From the NCBI GenBank assembly GCA_036308065.1, contig JAXJWL010000148.1:1-61529 (forward strand): a stretch of 61,529 nucleotides of DNA, written 5' to 3'. A program made the translations under genes and the position numbers. The notes under the pieces are model-generated. The model had not been told where the DNA came from. It made no database searches and saw nothing but the letters and a program-made list of their open reading frames with translations. Below are positions 15,922-24,669 of the stretch, one piece after another; within the stretch, counting starts at the first letter, position 1; the number at the start of each line of letters is the position of its first letter. The stretch comes from Paludibacteraceae bacterium (GTDB taxonomy: Bacteria > Bacteroidota > Bacteroidia > Bacteroidales > Paludibacteraceae).

Positions 15922-16617
15922 TCACATCATAAATCTCTCCAATTTATTCTTCCATCTTTCCCAATCCGGCATTTCCTTTTGCAATAGTTCCCAAAAAGCT
16001 TTTGTATGATTAGGATGTACTAAATGACATAGTTCGTGAGTTATCACATACTCTATACACGGACGTGGTGCCATTATAAGCCTTGTATTGAGTATTATTT
16101 TTCCATTAGGAGTACAACTCCCCCAGCGGTTTTTCATTTCAAGAATGCACACAGAAGATGGTATCACTTCATATTTTGCAAACTTCTCTATAATAGGTTG
16201 TGCATACTCTAAAAATTTTTCGTTTGCACGCACCTTATACCATTGCTTCATTAAGTCTCTAACGTTATTTTTAGACGTGCATACCACCTCAAAAAATCTT
16301 CCCTTATACTTCACACTATTGTAATTACCTTCCTCCACTTTAAGAAGAAATTGGCGACCTAAATAATAATGAGATTCACCACTAATGTACCTTTTCTCTG
16401 GCATTGCAGGTCCTAATTCACTAAAAAATTGCAATTGGCGCCATATCCATCTTAAACGTTTTTGCAACTTAACATCTATTACATCGCTCTGCGTTCCAAT
16501 AGGTGCCAATACCTCAACATTTCCTGTAGGATATACCTTTATACCAAGTGTCTTTCTATCAGAAAAAATCACTTTATAAGGTATTATATTTGCTCCAAAA
16601 TTCAATCTACCCTCCAT
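15922..16617 (-). CDS. M48/DUF45 (YgjP-like) zinc metallopeptidase, last gene of the Type I R-M operon
   Basis: HExxH motif (ITHELCHLVHPNH), 231 aa. Its ATG overlaps the hsdR stop (TAATG). Confidence 0.8.
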   Translation of the reverse strand: MEGRLNFGANIIPYKVIFSDRKTLGIKVYPTGNVEVLAPIGTQSDVIDVKLQKRLRWIWRQLQFFSELGPAMPEKRYISGESHYYLGRQFLLKVEEGNYNSVKYKGRFFEVVCTSKNNVRDLMKQWYKVRANEKFLEYAQPIIEKFAKYEVIPSSVCILEMKNRWGSCTPNGKIILNTRLIMAPRPCIEYVITHELCHLVHPNHTKAFWELLQKEMPDWERWKNKLERFMM

Positions 16618-19600
16618 TACTTATACCACTTTTTAGCTACCTCAACACAATTATCAATAATAGAATCCATATTATCAAAGGTTATTGGAAGGCCCTTTTC
16701 TCGCTTTATTTCATCTATTAAATAATCTTCAATATTAAGTTTTATCTCAGAAATTACTTTGTCTTTAAAGGTCCAATCTACCATTACTTTTTCATCTATA
16801 AAAATAGAAGACTTAATAATTTTATCTATTTCGTTAGCAGTAACTAAAGCCAACTCTACCTCATTAAACGAAGAATTATTTTTACAAACCTGTTTATAAA
16901 CCTCTAAAGTAAGACCATAATATGCTTTTGCTGCAGGATTGTCTTGTAACGATTCAGGTATTTCACTATCGGTGTGACTCAATACCTTATGCATTATATT
17001 CTCTGCTTTTTGTAGATATTCTGCCTCTGTGATACGACCTTGCCTATATTCCTCAATAGTCTCTTGTAACATTTTAGAAAACTTCTTAAAGAAAGCAGGG
17101 TCGGTATCTAATACTTCTGAAATGTATTTGGTAGTACGAGATGCAATAGTATCAGCTTTTGCAGCCTTCCCAACAACCTTTTCTACCTCTTCTGCAAAAA
17201 GTTCTTTATCAAAGATATTAACCAAGTTTGTTATAATCTCAACATCACCACTTTCTATATGCGTATCTATCAGCTTTTGTATCTGCCCCTCATATTGACT
17301 ATAGTTCACCGTATCTGAATAACGTTCTTGCACAGCTTTTCTCAATCGTAAGAACATCTTCAAATCTTCTTTGTAGTGATTTATTATTTCTATAGGAGTT
17401 GATTTATAAAAATCTATAGATGCAAGAGAAATTTTCAATGTTTTTGCAAAGGCTGTTAGTTTGTCATAAAACTCTGATCTTATATTTTCTTCTCGCAATA
17501 TTTCACCCAGAGACTCTAAATCTTGCTTATTTTTGGCAGTTTTTAGTATATCCCAAACATCACTATGGCGTTGAGGCAATTTAGCAACTTCAAGTGCTAT
17601 ATTTGAATATATTCCAACCACATCCTCTTCGTCGAAGTCTGAATAAATATCCAATGCCTCATTTAAGTTGGCAAAGACGCCATAATAATCAATAATATAA
17701 CCAAACTCCTTGTCATCACATACTCTATTAACACGGGCTATTGCTTGCAATAAGGTATGTTCTCTTAATTTTCTATCAAGGTATAATACTGTATTTTTAG
17801 GTTCATCAAAGCCAGTTAATAATTTATCTACAACAATTATTATCTCTGGACTTTCTCCATTTTTAAAACGGTTTATTATATTTTGCTCATACTTAGTAGC
17901 CGTTCCATGTTCATCCATCATACGCTTCCAGAAAGCTACTTCAGCATTCGAGGTTTCTCCGTATGCATCATCTTCACCTTCGCGAGTATCTGGTGATGTA
18001 ATCAATACTTCAGAAGATACAATCCCAATCTCGTCTAAATATTTTTTATACAAAATCGCTATGCGCTTGCGAGGTGCTACCAATTGACCTTTAAACTTAG
18101 AGCCTTGCCAATTGTCACGAAAATGTTGCGATATATCCCATGCAATTGCATAGATTCGTTGCTCCGTTTGGTTTATTTGATCCGCCCTACTAAATTTCTT
18201 TTTTAAATCGGCGCGTTGAGCATCTGTCATCCAATCGCAAATCCGTTCAAAATAACGGTCAATAGAGTCTGCATGTACTTTTTGTGGAACCATTCTGCCT
18301 TCATATAATAAAGGTACGACCGCTCCGTCTTTTACTGCCTGATCAACAGTATAAATAGGCTTAATAATACCTCCAAATCTTGCTGCGGTACTTTTCTCTT
18401 TCTTCATAAGTGGGGTACCCGTCATGGCAATAAAGCAAGCATTGGGCAAGGTCCTTTCCATTTTTATAGCCATTTCACCATACTGGCTTCTATGACCCTC
18501 GTCTATCAAAACAAATATATTCGCATCTGTCAATGGTGCTTTCATCCTATTAACAGCTGCATCAAATTTATTTATTATAGTAGTAATAATAGTAGAACGA
18601 TTACTTTCTAATAATTTCACTAAATTGCTACCTGTTGTAGCATTTTCTACTTGAACCTGACACTTCTTAAATGTTGCAGTTATTTGTCTATCTAAATCGG
18701 TACGGTCTGTTACTAGTATAATACGTGGATTCTTAATGCTCTTGTCTAAGATGATAGCCTGTGCCAATAGTACCATCGTTAGTGATTTCCCCGAACCTTG
18801 CGTATGCCAAATCACTCCTCCTCTACGTTTTCCACCCTCAATATTGCGCACACGTTCCATTACTTTTTCTACCGCAAAAAACTGTTGGTATCTTGCAATT
18901 TTCTTTACTCCATCATCAAACAACGTAAAACGATACATTAGTTGAAGTAAGCGTTCTGGTCGGCATAAATTATACAAATAAGCATCTTGAACAGACGGAA
19001 TTTTAGGTAAACCATATTGTTCTCCCTCTTCTGCTACCATCATATAACTGGATTCACTAGAATATGTTCTCTGATTTACCTTTTCCGACAATTTATAACG
19101 ATATAGTTCCTCTGCCGTTTTATCTACAAACTGCTCTACCCACTTGTTCCAAAACTTTTTAGGGGTTGCTGTGGTTGCATAGCTCACGTCGTTCACATTG
19201 GTAGCCAACAAAAGGGTGGAATACACGTATAAAGCACGAATTCCGTCTTCCTTTTGGTTTCGTAAATGTTGTGAAATAGCTTGGTCCAATGAATCTGTTA
19301 TATCAGGTCTTTTACATTCTATTACACACAATGGAATGCCATTTACAAACAAAACAATATCTGGACGATATGTTTCACTCATACCAGCTCTGCTTACTGC
19401 ATACTCCTCTGTTACATGAAATACATTATTTTCAATATTATTCCAATCTATATACTGCATCACATAACTCTTCTTATCTCCATCTACAATTTGTTCTACC
19501 GTTTTCCCTGCAGTTAAAAGGTCGTAGGCCGATTGAGCAGCAGTAATATAACCCTCCGACATAGGCAAGTTTTTCAGAGCATCTACACCTGACGCAATGT

Positions 19601-19817
19601 TTTGTTCAGAAAACAATGTTGTGCGCCAACTACTCACTTGTACTGTATTTATTTTTGCCAATTGTTTACGCAATACAGCTTCCAATAATACATTACTAGT
19701 ATTACCTCCACGTAGTTCCATTGCCTCATCTGGCGATAGATACGTATAACCAAGCTTTTTTAGCATATTTAAAGCTGGTATTTGGCTTATATGGTTTTCT
19801 TTAAATGAGAGGGTCAT
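16617..19817 (-). CDS. hsdR: Type I restriction enzyme R subunit (endonuclease/translocase)
   Basis: PD-(D/E)xK-like nuclease region (RPDIVLFVNGIPLCVIECKRP), helicase motif I (TQGSGKS) and motif II (LIDEGHRSQ), 1066 aa. Confidence 0.93.
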   Translation of the reverse strand: MTLSFKENHISQIPALNMLKKLGYTYLSPDEAMELRGGNTSNVLLEAVLRKQLAKINTVQVSSWRTTLFSEQNIASGVDALKNLPMSEGYITAAQSAYDLLTAGKTVEQIVDGDKKSYVMQYIDWNNIENNVFHVTEEYAVSRAGMSETYRPDIVLFVNGIPLCVIECKRPDITDSLDQAISQHLRNQKEDGIRALYVYSTLLLATNVNDVSYATTATPKKFWNKWVEQFVDKTAEELYRYKLSEKVNQRTYSSESSYMMVAEEGEQYGLPKIPSVQDAYLYNLCRPERLLQLMYRFTLFDDGVKKIARYQQFFAVEKVMERVRNIEGGKRRGGVIWHTQGSGKSLTMVLLAQAIILDKSIKNPRIILVTDRTDLDRQITATFKKCQVQVENATTGSNLVKLLESNRSTIITTIINKFDAAVNRMKAPLTDANIFVLIDEGHRSQYGEMAIKMERTLPNACFIAMTGTPLMKKEKSTAARFGGIIKPIYTVDQAVKDGAVVPLLYEGRMVPQKVHADSIDRYFERICDWMTDAQRADLKKKFSRADQINQTEQRIYAIAWDISQHFRDNWQGSKFKGQLVAPRKRIAILYKKYLDEIGIVSSEVLITSPDTREGEDDAYGETSNAEVAFWKRMMDEHGTATKYEQNIINRFKNGESPEIIIVVDKLLTGFDEPKNTVLYLDRKLREHTLLQAIARVNRVCDDKEFGYIIDYYGVFANLNEALDIYSDFDEEDVVGIYSNIALEVAKLPQRHSDVWDILKTAKNKQDLESLGEILREENIRSEFYDKLTAFAKTLKISLASIDFYKSTPIEIINHYKEDLKMFLRLRKAVQERYSDTVNYSQYEGQIQKLIDTHIESGDVEIITNLVNIFDKELFAEEVEKVVGKAAKADTIASRTTKYISEVLDTDPAFFKKFSKMLQETIEEYRQGRITEAEYLQKAENIMHKVLSHTDSEIPESLQDNPAAKAYYGLTLEVYKQVCKNNSSFNEVELALVTANEIDKIIKSSIFIDEKVMVDWTFKDKVISEIKLNIEDYLIDEIKREKGLPITFDNMDSIIDNCVEVAKKWYK

Positions 19818-19899: not shown

Positions 19900-21105
19900 T
19901 TATGAAACTTTTACTCTTGTTTTGCCTGTTAGTAATTGTTGCATTAAACCTTGTTTTTGATGACGTAATGCTTCAATTTTTTTACGTTGTGTTTCTATTT
20001 CCTTATCGGCTGATGTAAGTACCGATGCGATTGCTTTTTGTTCGGTTAGAGAAGGTATAAAAACTTTCACCTTACTAAAGTCATGAAATTTACAATTTAA
20101 CGTATCTCCAACTAGACCTTGAGAATGTGTCCAAAAATCATATACAACTCTTGATAACTTTAATAAGACAGAAATAAAAAAAGGATCAATATTAGACTTT
20201 GGAATCACTATGGTATAAGCAGGACTTACAATTCCTTCTATGGTAGATAAAGCACTTCGTCCTTGCCACATTCTCATCGTATTATAACCTATATCATTGG
20301 GACAAATTCGTTTGTATTTTGATTTATCTTCATTGGAGATATCCTTCTTATCCGATTCTGATTGCATAATAACACCTCTTTCTGCTGTAATAGACAGAAG
20401 AGGTAAATACTCGACATTACATTCATTACGTTCCTCAAAAACTTCACCTAATTCTATTTTCTTCCATGGTTCTGTAAATCCAGGAAGGCGAGTTTTACCT
20501 GTTAGCAGACGTTGCATAAGCCCGCGTTTACGAAGCTCTAACTTTTCTATCAACTTACTTTGCTTTTCTATAGCATCATCCCACGTACACAATATCTCTG
20601 CTATTTTTATCTGCTCCGCAAGAGGTGGGAGGGCAAGTCTATATGGAATAATATGTTTATTATTTATCTGTGGTATAGTAGAAGTATCTGCTATTTTAAA
20701 TAACTTTTCATAGATAATTTTAAAGTATAAATAATCTCCACAGACATCTTTTCTAGGAGTAATAGCCATCATATTACTATCCATATAAATTTCACAGCCT
20801 GCAATTCTTACTTTATTATTTAAAATAGCAGCTCCTCTCTTCGGGAATATTATACTCCCTTTCTGAATTAAACTACGAACATCATTAGAATACTCACGAC
20901 TGAAAAATTGGAATTTCTCACAATTATTCATATCCTCAACCTTAATATATGGGTATTTCCCTTTTTCTTCTAATCTATATATGGAAGGACTCTCACCACT
21001 TGTTATAAACACTAAATTTCCAAGTGTAGTCACCTCCCACTCTTCTGGAATTATCCCAACAACAGAGTCTTTATATCCTTGCGGTATGTTATTTTTATCT
21101 TTCAT
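19900..21105 (-). CDS. hsdS: Type I restriction-modification specificity subunit (two target-recognition domains)
   Basis: 401 aa. It has two TRDs, each followed by a conserved coiled-coil region (PPLAEQIKIAEIL...LMQRLLTGKTRL and PSLTEQKAIASVL...LMQQLLTGKTRV). Confidence 0.9.
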   Translation of the reverse strand: MKDKNNIPQGYKDSVVGIIPEEWEVTTLGNLVFITSGESPSIYRLEEKGKYPYIKVEDMNNCEKFQFFSREYSNDVRSLIQKGSIIFPKRGAAILNNKVRIAGCEIYMDSNMMAITPRKDVCGDYLYFKIIYEKLFKIADTSTIPQINNKHIIPYRLALPPLAEQIKIAEILCTWDDAIEKQSKLIEKLELRKRGLMQRLLTGKTRLPGFTEPWKKIELGEVFEERNECNVEYLPLLSITAERGVIMQSESDKKDISNEDKSKYKRICPNDIGYNTMRMWQGRSALSTIEGIVSPAYTIVIPKSNIDPFFISVLLKLSRVVYDFWTHSQGLVGDTLNCKFHDFSKVKVFIPSLTEQKAIASVLTSADKEIETQRKKIEALRHQKQGLMQQLLTGKTRVKVS

Positions 21106-21703
21106 TTATTTTAATTTTCTTTAAATACATATTAAAAGCCTCTTCATACTCCTCTTTAATGTACACATAACCACTTAAGGCTCTTATCTCGCTATCGTCC
21201 AAAGTCATTTCACTATAAAAGTCTTTTTCAACAATTGTGTTTACTAATACATTCTTTGCACTATCTACTATTATATCCATTAAGGTATCTATGTTTATAG
21301 GATTATTCAACCTCATTGTATATGGCAATGATTGTAATGCATATCCAAATGCCTCTGCATAATTTCCTTTTTCATGATGGTTTATTGCCCAAGTAAAAGC
21401 TATTAAGTGCCTTGACTGATATACACTATTTTCTATTAATAATTTTTGTTTTTCTATTTCACCTTCTAGTTTATCAAGTTCAGAAAGTTTATTTCTAATC
21501 TCTATTGTGTTATAAATCTGCCAACCCACAACAAAAGTCACGATAATTGCAAGCAAAGCTACTATAACTCCAATAAATGTTTCTATTCCGATAACAGAGA
21601 GTTTCCATACATTACATACCCACAAAAGAATTAGAGTTACAACAGACACGATAGCTGTTATAGACAAACCAATAGCCCAATTAACTTTTCTATCTATTTT
21701 CAT
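21095..21703 (-). CDS. Uncharacterised 2-TM / coiled-coil / helical-domain protein embedded in the R-M operon
   Basis: 202 aa. There are two hydrophobic helices (about residues 8-30 and 37-62), a heptad-like segment (NKLSELDKLEGEIEKQKLLIEN) and an ~100-aa helical C-terminal part. The start is 9 nt after the dinD-like stop, and the gene overlaps the hsdS start by 11 nt. I recognise no family. Confidence 0.6.
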   Translation of the reverse strand: MKIDRKVNWAIGLSITAIVSVVTLILLWVCNVWKLSVIGIETFIGVIVALLAIIVTFVVGWQIYNTIEIRNKLSELDKLEGEIEKQKLLIENSVYQSRHLIAFTWAINHHEKGNYAEAFGYALQSLPYTMRLNNPINIDTLMDIIVDSAKNVLVNTIVEKDFYSEMTLDDSEIRALSGYVYIKEEYEEAFNMYLKKIKINER

Positions 21704-21712
21704 ATCAAAACA

Positions 21713-22579
21713 TTATTTATCACTATCTTTTTTATTCTTGTTTTCTTTCAACATCTTTTTTTGTTTAGTTTCAATGCTCTTAATACTTTCTGCCACAGGC
21801 AAGTCTTCTGGCATTGTACCTCCTAACTCTTTAATGGTTTGACGAACCTTTCTACCTACCTCAAAATGAGTTTTGTTTGCATTGAGTTTTCCTTTTATAT
21901 TTTCTCTGCGTAACTTTTCTTCTGTTTGCGTTGCACGGAAAAGATTTGCAGCTAACTCAGTACTTCCCATGTGGTCTAGAATCTTCTGACTTTTCTTTAA
22001 ACCTTTTCTTGCATGAATTTCTTTTGCACCAAGTCCACCATACAATCCTTGATAACCATAATTCTGAAAAATCGCATAATCGCGAGGTTCTATTACACCG
22101 GCATCTTTTGCTGCGCTAGCCAACTGAGAATTATGTTTTAGTAATTCTTCTCGTAAAAACAGGCGTTTCTCTTCTTCTGTGGACAACTGATTATACTCAT
22201 CCATTTGCTGCACCTCAGCAATGCGTGTTTGTATAGCAAAATAGGTCTGTGCTTGGGCTACTATTACCTTATTTGGGTCTGCATTTTGAACAGTAAGATA
22301 ACAAGCATAGCGGGTAAGTTTTATCGTTTCTATAGGACGAACCGCTCCACGAGCTATTGTAATCATTTCGGTGACGTCACCGAAATGTTCAACGACCTCA
22401 TTTGCACTATTAACACAGGCTTCCTTAGCTTTATTTATAACAGCCAAAAAGTTTCTATAATCAGCATAACCTAATACACGCGCTAATTCTCTTGATGACC
22501 AATATTCTACACCATTTTCGTCTATTTTTCGAATACTCTCAAAAATCGACACAGTTTCTTTTGTTAACTTCGTATTCAT
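21713..22579 (-). CDS. dinD: DNA-damage-inducible protein D (DinD)-like protein
   Basis: ENGVEYWSSRELARVLGYADYRNFLAVINKAKEAC ... LTRYACYLTVQNADPNK ... AQAQTYFAIQTR closely parallels the E. coli DinD N-terminal region. 288 aa. Confidence 0.75.
   Translation of the reverse strand: MNTKLTKETVSIFESIRKIDENGVEYWSSRELARVLGYADYRNFLAVINKAKEACVNSANEVVEHFGDVTEMITIARGAVRPIETIKLTRYACYLTVQNADPNKVIVAQAQTYFAIQTRIAEVQQMDEYNQLSTEEEKRLFLREELLKHNSQLASAAKDAGVIEPRDYAIFQNYGYQGLYGGLGAKEIHARKGLKKSQKILDHMGSTELAANLFRATQTEEKLRRENIKGKLNANKTHFEVGRKVRQTIKELGGTMPEDLPVAESIKSIETKQKKMLKENKNKKDSDK
22364..22387. repeat. 24-bp perfect palindrome CATTTCGGTGACGTCACCGAAATG inside the dinD-like CDS
   Basis: Read directly from the sequence. 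It encodes HFGDVTEM on both strands and has the same TGACGTCA core as the hsdS-hsdR dyads. Confidence 0.9.
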
Positions 22580-22592
22580 AAGAAAAATTATT

Positions 22593-24119
22593 TTAGATTC
22601 CCAACTCTTTTAAATACTCATTCATTTGTTTTCTTACTTCTGCAAGTTCTGTTTCAAGAGTTTCAATTTCTTGCTGAAGAGCAACTATATCTATTCCTGC
22701 TTCTTCTTCGTAAGTATCTACATATCGAGGGATATTAAGATTATAATTGTTTTCTTGTATTTCATCACAAGTTGCTACATATGCATATTTGTCTTCTACC
22801 ACACCTACACCAAGTGAAGATTCTGTAAATTTACGATATGTAGAAACAATATGCTCTATATCTATATCACGCAGTTTATTTTGATTTTTACCATTTTCAA
22901 ACTCTCTACTTGCATCTATAAACAGCACATTATTAGATTTTTTAGACTTGTTGAATATTATAATAGCGGCAGGAATACCTGTTCCGTAAAACAGGTTTGC
23001 AGGCAAACCAATCACAGCTTCTAACAAGTTTTCGTCAATGGTTTGTTGGCGAATTTTTCCCTCGCTTGCCCCTCTAAACAAGACACCATGTGGTATAACT
23101 ACACCCACTTTGCCATGTTCATTTGCCACTTCCAACATGTGACTAATAAATGCCCAATCACCCTTACTTTTAGGAGGAACACCACGCCAAAAACGGTTGT
23201 ACTTATCATTTGGCGCTTCTTCTGCACCCCATTTTTCCAAAGAAAAAGGAGGATTTGCCACAACTGTATCAAATTTCATCAGAGCATCACCATCCTTTAA
23301 TTTAGGATTTCGCAAAGTATCTCCCCAACGTATTACAGCACTATCAAAACCATGCAATAACATATTCATCATAGCCAATGCCCATGTACTTCCATTTAAT
23401 TCTTGTCCGTAAAGCGAAAAATTATCAGACCCAACTTCTCTACCTGCTTTTATCAAAAGCGAACCAGAACCACAAGTAGGGTCACAAATGCGAGAACCAG
23501 GTGCACTTTTTGTTAATTTAGCAAGCAATGTTGATACTTCTTTAGGGGTGAAAAATTCCCCAGCTTTTTTCCCAGCGTCACTTGCAAAATGTTCTATCAA
23601 GAACATATATGCATCACCAATCACATCGTTATGTTCCAAGTGAGATTCATCAAATTGTAATTTTGGGTCCGCAAAATCATCAAGTAATGTTTTTAGTCGA
23701 ACATTCCTATCTTTAACTTCACCAAGATTACTACTATTAAAACTAATATTTCTGAAGATACCACTTCCATCTTCACTATTAAGTTTTTCTCTATTGGCAT
23801 TTTCCAAATCAACCAAAGCTATATCTATCAATTCACCTATATTTGGCTCGTTACGATTTTCGTACAAATAATAGAACGAACTTGTTGCTGGAATCTGAAA
23901 ACGCTCACGACGCATAGCACGTTGTGTACGTTCTTCATCACCATCATATCGTTGTAAATATGCTTCATATTTTGACTTATTTACATCACTAATGTATTTA
24001 AGAAAAAGCATCGTTAAGATATAATCTTTGTACTGATTAGGATCTACCACCCCGCGAAATGTATCACAGGCATTCCATACAACTTTGTTAATGTCCTCTT
24101 GGGTTATTTTTGTGCTCAT
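22593..24119 (-). CDS. hsdM: Type I restriction-modification N6-adenine DNA methyltransferase subunit
   Basis: AdoMet motif (DPTCGSGSLL), catalytic NPPF (VVANPPFSLEKW) and an HsdM N-terminal domain. 508 aa. Confidence 0.93.
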   Translation of the reverse strand: MSTKITQEDINKVVWNACDTFRGVVDPNQYKDYILTMLFLKYISDVNKSKYEAYLQRYDGDEERTQRAMRRERFQIPATSSFYYLYENRNEPNIGELIDIALVDLENANREKLNSEDGSGIFRNISFNSSNLGEVKDRNVRLKTLLDDFADPKLQFDESHLEHNDVIGDAYMFLIEHFASDAGKKAGEFFTPKEVSTLLAKLTKSAPGSRICDPTCGSGSLLIKAGREVGSDNFSLYGQELNGSTWALAMMNMLLHGFDSAVIRWGDTLRNPKLKDGDALMKFDTVVANPPFSLEKWGAEEAPNDKYNRFWRGVPPKSKGDWAFISHMLEVANEHGKVGVVIPHGVLFRGASEGKIRQQTIDENLLEAVIGLPANLFYGTGIPAAIIIFNKSKKSNNVLFIDASREFENGKNQNKLRDIDIEHIVSTYRKFTESSLGVGVVEDKYAYVATCDEIQENNYNLNIPRYVDTYEEEAGIDIVALQQEIETLETELAEVRKQMNEYLKELGI

Positions 24120-24120
24120 A

Positions 24121-24669
24121 TTATAGATTGTTTATTATTTTACTTTCAAATAATTGACTACGTTTTTGCATTATTGCTTGACACAACATTTGTTCACGTT
24201 TGTACAACTTTGCCAATTGCAAACATTGTTGCTGCTTCTCTACAGATGGTATTGGGATTTCAATCTCCCCTAGCACATTCTTTGATATTGACAAAATTGC
24301 ACTACCTTTTGCTTGTTGCATCAATATTCTTTGCGTTCTTGACAAATTAAGAAACCACGCCACATAAGCAGGCAATACATTTTCTTTATCGTTTATACGT
24401 AATACCAAAAATGAGGAAGAAGCCACAGCTTTATATCCCATTTCTGGAACCTCTACACACTGATTCTTACCACCCTTGCAAACTACTAATAAATCACCAC
24501 TATTTAACATATACTTATCACTCACCTCTATAGTAGGACACAACGAAACATCCACATTTCCTTCATCATCAAAATCACTTTGCTGTAAATACACTGCATT
24601 TGGAGTTGGAGATTTTTTTGCAAAAACCCCTGTCTGAACAATTGCAATATCATAAATCTTTGTCTTCAT
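24121..24669 (-). CDS. Half-size HsdS-like specificity protein (single TRD plus one conserved helix)
   Basis: 182 aa with the TRD pattern (GDLLVVCKGG..., FLNLSRTQRILMQQAKGSAILSISKNVLGEIEIPIPSVEKQQQ). It abuts the hsdM start with a 1-nt gap. Confidence 0.7.
   Translation of the reverse strand: MKTKIYDIAIVQTGVFAKKSPTPNAVYLQQSDFDDEGNVDVSLCPTIEVSDKYMLNSGDLLVVCKGGKNQCVEVPEMGYKAVASSSFLVLRINDKENVLPAYVAWFLNLSRTQRILMQQAKGSAILSISKNVLGEIEIPIPSVEKQQQCLQLAKLYKREQMLCQAIMQKRSQLFESKIINNL

Follow-up and report, generated by a model that had tools for sequence, protein, structure and literature searches.

A predicted two-helix membrane protein in a Type I restriction-modification operon, a candidate autonomous defence gene of Bacteroidales

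Why should a Type I restriction-modification (R-M) operon harbour a small gene for a predicted membrane protein? The question is raised by a 61,529-nucleotide (nt) stretch of DNA from a Paludibacteraceae bacterium (GenBank assembly GCA_036308065.1, contig JAXJWL010000148.1; the whole stretch is referred to as the window), in which a gene of 202 codons starts with ATG and occupies positions 21095..21703 of the minus strand, between dinD and the specificity gene hsdS. Its product belongs to an unannotated family and is predicted to consist of a hairpin of two transmembrane (TM) helices, a coiled-coil stalk and a helical domain resembling tetratricopeptide repeats (TPR). The reading we favour, with a probability of roughly 0.4, is that of an autonomous, mobile defence-island gene, which would encode a module of abortive infection or exclusion that acts on the membrane and senses through a variable cytoplasmic domain.

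The open reading frame (ORF) is a genuine gene under purifying selection. A word-indexed search retrieved 128 homologues, nearly all of 195-215 amino acids (aa), and the cluster representatives matched by an exhaustive profile search number 1531 at E ≤ 1e-3, 373 at E ≤ 1e-10 and 89 at E ≤ 1e-30. Between strain variants of the window locus the ratio of non-synonymous to synonymous substitution (dN/dS, omega) is 0.22-0.41, as pairwise Nei-Gojobori estimates on recombinant sequences, and not near 1, the value by which a missing coding signal would have been recognised. Long chance ORFs do arise in AT-rich DNA, and the local GC content is ~31%; nevertheless, a spurious or wrongly annotated ORF between AT-rich genes' ends has virtually no chance of being the explanation, as it is refuted by the hundreds of length-conserved homologues, by omega values of 0.2-0.4, the second TM helix being invariant although its synonymous sites are saturated, and by AlphaFold2 models of high confidence. 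The gene boundaries agree with the original prediction, which had been made from the DNA sequence without database searches: the 202-aa ORF lies between the DinD-like gene and hsdS, all peptides quoted from it are found in its translation, and, with the dinD stop codon at 21713-21715 and the ATG at 21703-21701, the gap between the two genes is exactly 9 nt. The hsdS ATG at 21105 lies within the last 11 nt of the gene, forming the expected overlap (21095..21105, minus strand, ATGAAAGATAA), and similar junctions occur in homologous loci. The overlap suggests possible translational coupling with hsdS, and the gene, as cargo nested in the R-M operon, is probably expressed together with it in the window.

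No library searched gives the family a name. Scanned individually, the window protein and 34 relatives had no near-threshold match in Pfam, NCBIfam, PADLOC v2 or PHROGs; the best of the 5027 PADLOC v2 models for the window protein was CARF_2M, at E 0.1, and no PDC model matched. Nor did it match the Methylase_S, N6_Mtase/HsdM_N and HSDR_N/ResIII models, which its neighbours match strongly. In databases the family is called 'hypothetical protein', the sole exception being one evidently spurious JGI 'DUF485' label, and a search of the literature for membrane proteins in hsd operons and for surveys of Bacteroidales defence yielded nothing specific to it. Unannotated cargo ORFs of the surveyed operons (207, 220, 282 and 108 aa, and others) were considered as paralogues and rejected, as none matched the family hidden Markov model (HMM).

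Some copies depart from the common architecture. In one protein of 276 aa (P0180) the N-terminal hairpin and juxtamembrane motif of the family, near-identical over residues 1-78, continue into an FtsK/SpoIIIE-like P-loop segment (LIAGSTGSGKS...LILIDPKRTEL); it appears truncated at the contig end and could be either a true domain swap or an assembly chimera. Six loci (L014, L020, L076, L087, L097 and L109) match the family HMM in two consecutive pieces separated by a frameshift or stop, so that disrupted copies or assembly errors make up ~6% of loci, and in L110 apparent short extra fragments lie upstream of an intact copy.

How might the protein be built? The full-length AlphaFold2 model, calculated from a 35-sequence alignment, has a mean predicted local distance difference test (pLDDT) score of 89.3 and consists of a helix of residues 3-29 containing TM1, a short loop, a continuous helix of residues 40-111 comprising TM2 and the stalk, and a helical bundle of residues 115-196, capped by two short strands. 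A model of the C-terminal domain only (residues 86-202, 57 sequences) reaches a pLDDT of 96.3 and a predicted TM-score of 0.88. On the minus strand, TM1 (about residues 9-29) is encoded by 21617..21679, TM2 with its juxtamembrane motif (about residues 42-62) by 21518..21580, the heptad stalk of coiled-coil type (residues 63-111) by 21371..21517 and the putative cytoplasmic helical-repeat C-domain (residues 112-202) by 21098..21370. Among 90 non-redundant members, lysines and arginines number 2.3 in the N-terminal tail of ~7 residues versus 0.41 in the 11-residue loop, where aspartates and glutamates number 1.3. By the positive-inside rule the amino-terminus would be inside, the loop outside and the carboxy-terminus inside; a hairpin of this topology is therefore predicted, with stalk and C-domain in the cytoplasm. 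Hydrophobic residues recur every 3.4-3.5 residues over stalk positions 63-110, columns 63, 67, 69, 73, 76, 83 and 90 being fully hydrophobic, which suggests that packing involves the same helix face on both sides, within the membrane and in the cytoplasm. The two hydrophobic helices, heptad stalk and helical C-domain that had been proposed for the window protein thus hold for the family as a whole.

Within this framework TM2 is near-invariant. Its mean column entropy is 0.73 bits, whereas TM1 has 1.9, the stalk 2.6 and the C-domain, which is hypervariable between family members, 2.55. The consensus of TM2 and its flanks reads [DE]41-[TS]-F-[VI]-G45-V-I-V-A49-L-L-A52-I-I-V-T56-x-x-x-G60-W-Q62-I-x-N65, with G45, T56, Q62, I63 and N65 each present in at least 86 of the 90 sequences. 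A ladder of small residues, G45, A49, A52, T56 and G60, follows an i+3/i+4 spacing along one helical face; with D41, Q62 and N65, it forms a face of small and polar residues that continues into the heptad stalk. Over codons 43-65 the proportion of synonymous differences (pS) is saturated at 0.6-0.98 while that of non-synonymous differences (pN) is 0-0.15, so the constraint acts on the protein and not on the DNA, and a DNA-level cause of the invariance, such as a recombination site or a regulatory element, is excluded.

For the C-domain only a fold class can be proposed. Foldseek searches of the PDB returned nothing at E ≤ 1e-3 for the full-length or the C-domain model; the best weak matches were Get4, Hif1, Sec72, Sgt2, ct2138, NprR and Rgg3 (E ≥ 0.6, TM-score ≤ 0.5). 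A sequence profile search of the PDB weakly matched consensus-TPR designs (E 0.11-0.28, profile positions ~100-127), and Pfam TPR models matched neither the window protein nor its 34 relatives. The TPR and helical-repeat domains of Get4, Sgt2, Sec72 and the RRNPP proteins NprR and Rgg are the closest resemblance, all below significance. The motif NYAEAFGYALQSL...NNPIN resembles a TPR repeat, whereas the domain differs from TPR domains in ending in a small two-stranded sheet. The first description of the domain as 'slightly TPR-like' is only weakly borne out, the top Foldseek matches being of this type but at E ≥ 0.6, and consensus TPR scoring E ~0.1; 'TPR-like' is thus a fair description of the modelled fold class and not a family assignment, and the initial statement that the C-domain could be assigned to no family stands, with Foldseek, PDB profile and Pfam results all below significance. 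The sole borderline full-length structural match was to BFVD entry A0A8S5L6Z6, an uncharacterised 151-aa protein from a metagenomic phage contig (Siphoviridae sp. ctnFV5; Foldseek E 1.7e-3, TM-scores 0.43/0.54, 18% identity).

Does the gene belong to the R-M system? Its surroundings were surveyed at 101 loci, 21 from genomes (a one-genome-per-species collection, in which 22 were found) and 80 from metagenomes; these loci were retrieved with TM2-motif patterns and ranked by similarity to the query, leaving out ~1400 distant representatives of the profile search. ORFs were called mechanically, and Type I markers were detected with HMMs built from the hsd genes of the surveyed loci. The genome loci come from Bacteroidales metagenome-assembled genomes (MAGs), mostly from rumen or gut, and the hosts include Prevotella/Prevotellaceae, Paludibacteraceae, Bacteroidaceae, Porphyromonadaceae, Ca. 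Enterocola and Ca. Aphodosoma; the only locus attributed outside Bacteroidales is a weak, N-terminal-only match on a contig labelled as a Staphylococcus MAG. Type I markers lie beside the family gene in 7 of 21 genome and 30 of 80 metagenome loci, or ~37% overall, fractions that are approximate because of the pattern-based retrieval and similarity ranking. Where they do, the arrangement of the window recurs: in 27 of the 30 Type I loci with enough flanking sequence hsdS starts no more than 120 nt from the stop codon of the family gene (range -4 to +43 nt), so that the tight packing against hsdS first noticed in the window is found in most embedded homologues. A Type I operon was also present in seven of eight homologues looked up individually, those seven being 35-90% identical to the window protein; Bro-N/DinD, Fic, DUF4062, SLFN_AlbA_2, Abi_C and Abi_alpha genes are interspersed as cargo in their operons.

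The recurrent neighbourhood of hsdS would suit an accessory dedicated to the R-M system, either a guardian that senses its inhibition, as PrrC does for EcoPrrI, or a membrane tether or regulator of HsdS/HsdM at the place where foreign DNA enters. PrrC itself is soluble and ABC-ATPase-like; it carries a tRNA nuclease domain, and the R-M complex keeps it latent. The family shares with PrrC and RloC the position inside an hsd operon and possibly a second-line abortive response, but it differs from them in its two predicted TM helices, in lacking an ATPase or nuclease match and in that most of its relatives lie outside Type I operons. We regard a dedicated accessory as rather unlikely: ~60% of the loci carry no Type I marker, and Methylase_S is outside the top families among the 148 nearest neighbours in the 62 non-Type-I loci. 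Copies flanked on both sides solely by genes on the opposite strand (L004, L019 and L030) and the order hsdM-hsdS-X in two distant Type I loci (L021 and L116) also argue against it. The 'undescribed defence accessory' of the original prediction therefore stands in part: the gene is real, uncharacterised and predicted to encode two TM helices, but it is not a dedicated Type I accessory, since Type I markers are limited to ~37% of the loci surveyed.

In the remaining ~60% of loci no neighbour gene is conserved throughout. One host recurs, in at least eight loci (L014, L085, L094, L098, L102, L105, L106 and L108; also L019): an operon that pairs an HKD+Snf2 helicase (PADLOC C3a139, E 7e-121) with a Type IIG restriction enzyme-methyltransferase (E 2e-149), and, this being again of restriction type, the second large clade that it houses is a point for the R-M-dedicated reading. 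The Type IIG protein has ~1050-1090 aa and Eco57I and TaqI_C domains. Inserted between and after the core genes are the family gene, PDC-M41A, a GNAT-fusion protein and SLFN_AlbA_2; further inserts of this operon are unannotated 245-aa and 740-aa proteins, a 489-aa P-loop protein and an HNH protein. Elsewhere, immediate neighbours are PDC-S01 (AAA_14+DUF4143, five loci), PDC-M41A, AAA_15/AAA_21 ATPases, AbiH, TIR and Fic/VbhA, and also HNH, SLFN_AlbA_2, NOV_C, RhuM, DUF1016/YhcG and radical-SAM proteins; in L030 the family gene lies between an AAA_15+TIR pair and AbiH. Counted over the 148 nearest neighbours of non-Type-I loci, the commonest families are Eco57I/TaqI_C/N6_Mtase (7), AAA_14/DUF4143 (5) and AAA_15/AAA_21 (5), followed by ComM (4) and by AbiH, ThsB_TIR and Fic (2 each). 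Among them no housekeeping operon recurs, and across the surveyed loci and look-ups homologues are not mainly in housekeeping contexts, a finding that would have spoken against a defence gene. In a rough, quick neighbour-joining tree of the family, Type I-embedded and other contexts are interleaved; the context has therefore been switched several times. With no conserved partner, copies whose neighbours are all on the opposite strand and repeated changes of context, the gene would be a self-contained module.

The gene's history within one species bears on the same question. Several metagenomic contigs represent the chromosomal locus of the window and share its rimM, aminotransferase and glnS-type flanks. 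Between these strains pN is 0.005-0.006 in hsdR and 0.002-0.003 in the aminotransferase gene, with pS of 0.03-0.26. The family gene is kept next to hsdS in every strain contig compared. dinD lies between it and hsdM in the window, L117 and L121 and is absent there in L033-L036, where a 207-aa ORF and a 275-aa Bro-N gene follow hsdS in its place; dinD is a second embedded cargo gene whose presence varies between strains. That the family gene stays with hsdS while dinD, Bro-N and the 207-aa ORF come and go favours an R-M-dedicated role. The first 272 of the 717 positions of the PADLOC 'Specificity_I' model PDLC03083 align to DinD, which hints at DinD-HsdS fusions elsewhere.

The variation in hsdS and in the family gene is of an allelic type. 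Comparison of hsdS in the window and in L033 (6599-7903) aligns only the first ~75 nt, the centre and the 3' conserved region (88-94% identity), so that, judged by the alignment, both target recognition domains (TRDs) have been replaced between strains, which is classic TRD shuffling. In the family gene TM1 exists within the species as two old alleles (pS 0.5-0.6 between them) and the C-domain as at least three (pS 0.5-0.84, pN 0.15-0.29), combined as A+C1 in the window, B+C1 in L033, B+C3 in L119 and A+C2 in L117 and L121; the TM2 block is almost identical across these combinations. The gene is mosaic within the species, and its divergence far exceeds that of the genes around it. As omega is 0.1-0.46 within every segment, each allele is functional. 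In L001, which belongs to a different genus and has a backbone ~80% identical to the window at the DNA level, homology ends at codon ~80 of the family gene and resumes in the central conserved region of hsdS. A variable block running from codon ~80 through TRD1 would again fit an R-M accessory, and obligatory pairing between C-domain and TRD1 was considered for this reason; it was rejected because the window and L033 share a C-domain allele and differ in their TRDs. This absence of specific matching between C-domain and TRDs also weakens the accessory reading itself. The allelic diversity could reflect frequency-dependent upkeep of sensor alleles in an arms race.

How would an autonomous defence module work? 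Stalk and TM2 would drive homo-oligomerisation in the inner membrane, a proposal that stems from the invariant TM2 ladder, which, being continuous with the heptad stalk, suits tight homo-oligomeric packing. The fast-diversifying cytoplasmic domain may bind a protein cue derived from the phage or from the infection, since domains of the helical-repeat class usually bind proteins or peptides. Binding could then switch the TM2 bundle to a membrane-damaging state (depolarisation or a pinhole) or block DNA entry, so that restriction would be backed up by abortive infection or exclusion. In the window this layer would be expressed together with hsdS, to which it is probably coupled in translation.

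Several observations weigh against this reading. The anti-phage role is a candidate one, read from the gene neighbourhood alone, with context fractions that are approximate, and in the libraries searched the protein has no homology to any protein of known function. Positive selection on the C-domain was looked for and rejected: omega is 0.28-0.39 between alleles, with no pairwise signal above 1, and the diversity could also be due to hitch-hiking with TRD shuffling next door. Small-residue ladders and heptads also occur in membrane anchors that are not channels. In some loci the neighbours are non-defence genes, i.e., a P-type ATPase, comM, DUF6340 and polysaccharide genes. The split copies may be assembly errors or indicate dispensability, and could also be those of a costly gene.

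Some of these observations would be explained if the gene were a non-defence passenger with an envelope, stress or mobile-element function (addiction or conjugative entry exclusion), accumulating in recombination-prone islands. Variable islands gather many kinds of genes, comM, a common island-integration site, is the neighbour in four cases, and the protein has neither omega above 1 nor a recognisable functional domain. However, the top neighbour families are defence types (restriction, Abi or ATPase), neither a housekeeping nor a transfer operon is recurrent, no member was found in 72,556 plasmid records or in phage collections, and a strongly conserved TM2 combined with a hypervariable soluble domain is unlike a generic anchor, which makes a passenger not very probable. 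A phage or plasmid origin was rejected: tblastn found no relatives in 50,697 phage and 72,556 plasmid records and none were found in IMG/VR, the borderline BFVD match being the sole viral lead.

A different kind of protection would be afforded by a superinfection-exclusion type blocker, in which the hairpin stops phage DNA from crossing the inner membrane and the cell survives. Small membrane proteins with such an injection-blocking role are Imm and Sp of T4, SieA of P22 and lactococcal Sie; the family protein is likewise a small predicted inner-membrane protein from defence loci, with a conserved acidic residue (D/E41) at the periplasm-facing mouth of TM2. To our knowledge, though, the known Sie proteins are encoded by prophages or phages, and the family is absent from phage collections. 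Its periplasmic loop has just ~11 residues, and the variable domain, which presumably determines specificity, is predicted to be cytoplasmic. We therefore consider a blocker of injection improbable.

Among known membrane effectors, the nearest in design to the favoured sensor-effector module are the two-TM signalling effectors: SLATT and S-2TM-beta of CBASS, PycTM of Pycsar, the retron 2TM effector, and Cam1 and Csx23 of type III CRISPR systems. They too combine a short membrane hairpin with a cytoplasmic domain, which in them senses a ligand, occur in defence loci and are presumed to perturb the membrane as oligomers. In contrast to them, the putative sensor here is of a TPR-like, protein-binding type of fold rather than a nucleotide-binding one, and the gene is apparently self-sufficient. 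No SLATT_1-5 or DUF4231 Pfam family was among those listed for the window protein (E ≤ 1) or for 35 members (E ≤ 0.05), and no cyclase, CARF, SAVED, SMODS or SLOG partner recurs, no cyclase being present among the top neighbour families. With class II holins and pinholins the family shares the predicted N-in/C-in two-TM topology and a TM2 rich in small residues; in the pinholin S68 of phage 21 a small-residue zipper of the second TM helix lines a small heptameric pore. In sequence the family is not significantly similar to holins or pinholins, a few members having sub-threshold Phage_holin_2 matches (E ≥ 0.01). The family protein is three times longer, with a stalk and domain of ~140 aa predicted to be cytoplasmic, it was not found in phage records or IMG/VR, and its neighbours are R-M and Abi genes. 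Its TM1 is not of the signal-anchor-release (SAR) type: a releasable TM1 as in pinholins was rejected, since TM1 has a mean Kyte-Doolittle hydropathy of 2.15 and a G/A/S/T fraction of 0.28, equal to TM2.

Defence genes nested in R-M systems are already established: PrrC is embedded in EcoPrrI (PMC12707154), and TgvAB lies in the Type I cluster of Vibrio cholerae VPI-2 (PMC11411939). Payne et al. (2024; bioRxiv 10.1101/2024.01.29.577857) generalised the principle as 'guilt-by-embedding' and listed 145 candidates, which are included in PADLOC; more than half of the embedded genes are unexplained. Like these candidates, the gene described here is nested between Type I subunit genes and has homologues that are not embedded or lie in other defence systems. 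Its neighbour dinD is listed (PDC-S13), whereas the gene itself matches no PDC or HEC profile and, having no match in the 5027 PADLOC v2 models, is not among the 145; this is probably because the family is found mostly in uncultured Bacteroidales of rumen and gut. Since embedded defence genes are known, it does not make the Type I system one of a novel kind; what is new is the family and its architecture, a variant of a known phenomenon.

The remainder of the window operon was identified by Pfam, NCBIfam and PADLOC scans. All genes are on the minus strand, in the order half-size hsdS-like gene (24121..24669, 182 aa, a single TRD, Methylase_S E 1.6e-6), hsdM (22593..24119, N6_Mtase E 4e-103), dinD (21713..22579, Bro-N plus a C-terminal domain, NF008573 E 6.8e-118, PDC-S13 E 6e-117, PHROG 8036), the family gene, hsdS (19900..21105, a full-length specificity subunit with two TRDs, Methylase_S in two stretches, E 4.7e-30), hsdR (16617..19817) and a gene for a YgjP-like metallopeptidase (15922..16617, PF01863, WLM/SprT-like, E 1.5e-58). 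The other junctions measure -1 to 13 nt, except for 82 nt before hsdR. The half-size gene, directly upstream of hsdM and additional to the full-length hsdS, is kept in related operons (L001, L002, L006, L008, L010, L023, L028 and L033), and two specificity genes per operon could provide alternative methylase specificities. The operon ends with the YgjP-like gene, the start of which shares 1 nt with the hsdR stop; it has this place in almost every related Type I locus (L001, L002, L007, L008, L010, L023, L025 and L028). The GC content of the region is lowest (~31%) at positions 20500-22000, which contain the family gene and the 5' part of hsdS; it is 38-43% in the housekeeping flanks, a difference that would fit cargo exchanged horizontally.

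What would such a gene mean for its hosts? Bacteroidales dominate gut and rumen communities, yet little of their anti-phage repertoire has been charted, since Proteobacteria and Firmicutes were used in most of the discovery work. The family is notable in being unannotated in the libraries searched while counting 373 representatives at E ≤ 1e-10, with a confidently predicted fold that has no solved relative. It is also a simple object: a single gene of 0.6 kb, with natural operons with and without cargo and a natural allele series of the presumed sensor domain. In its boldest form, which we consider quite unlikely, the proposal would make it the founding member of a Bacteroidales-specific family of single-gene anti-phage systems, an oligomeric membrane 'sensor-pore' whose ancient C-domain alleles are shuffled by recombination together with the hsdS TRDs, so that one hotspot would diversify both restriction specificity and a second-line sensor, and the Type I-embedded form may guard the R-M complex against phage anti-restriction proteins. 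If the gene does not protect, it is a useful caution for 'guilt-by-embedding' predictions. If it does protect against phages, the catalogue of defence systems would gain a self-contained membrane effector-sensor, and hsd loci would be seen to diversify more than restriction specificity.

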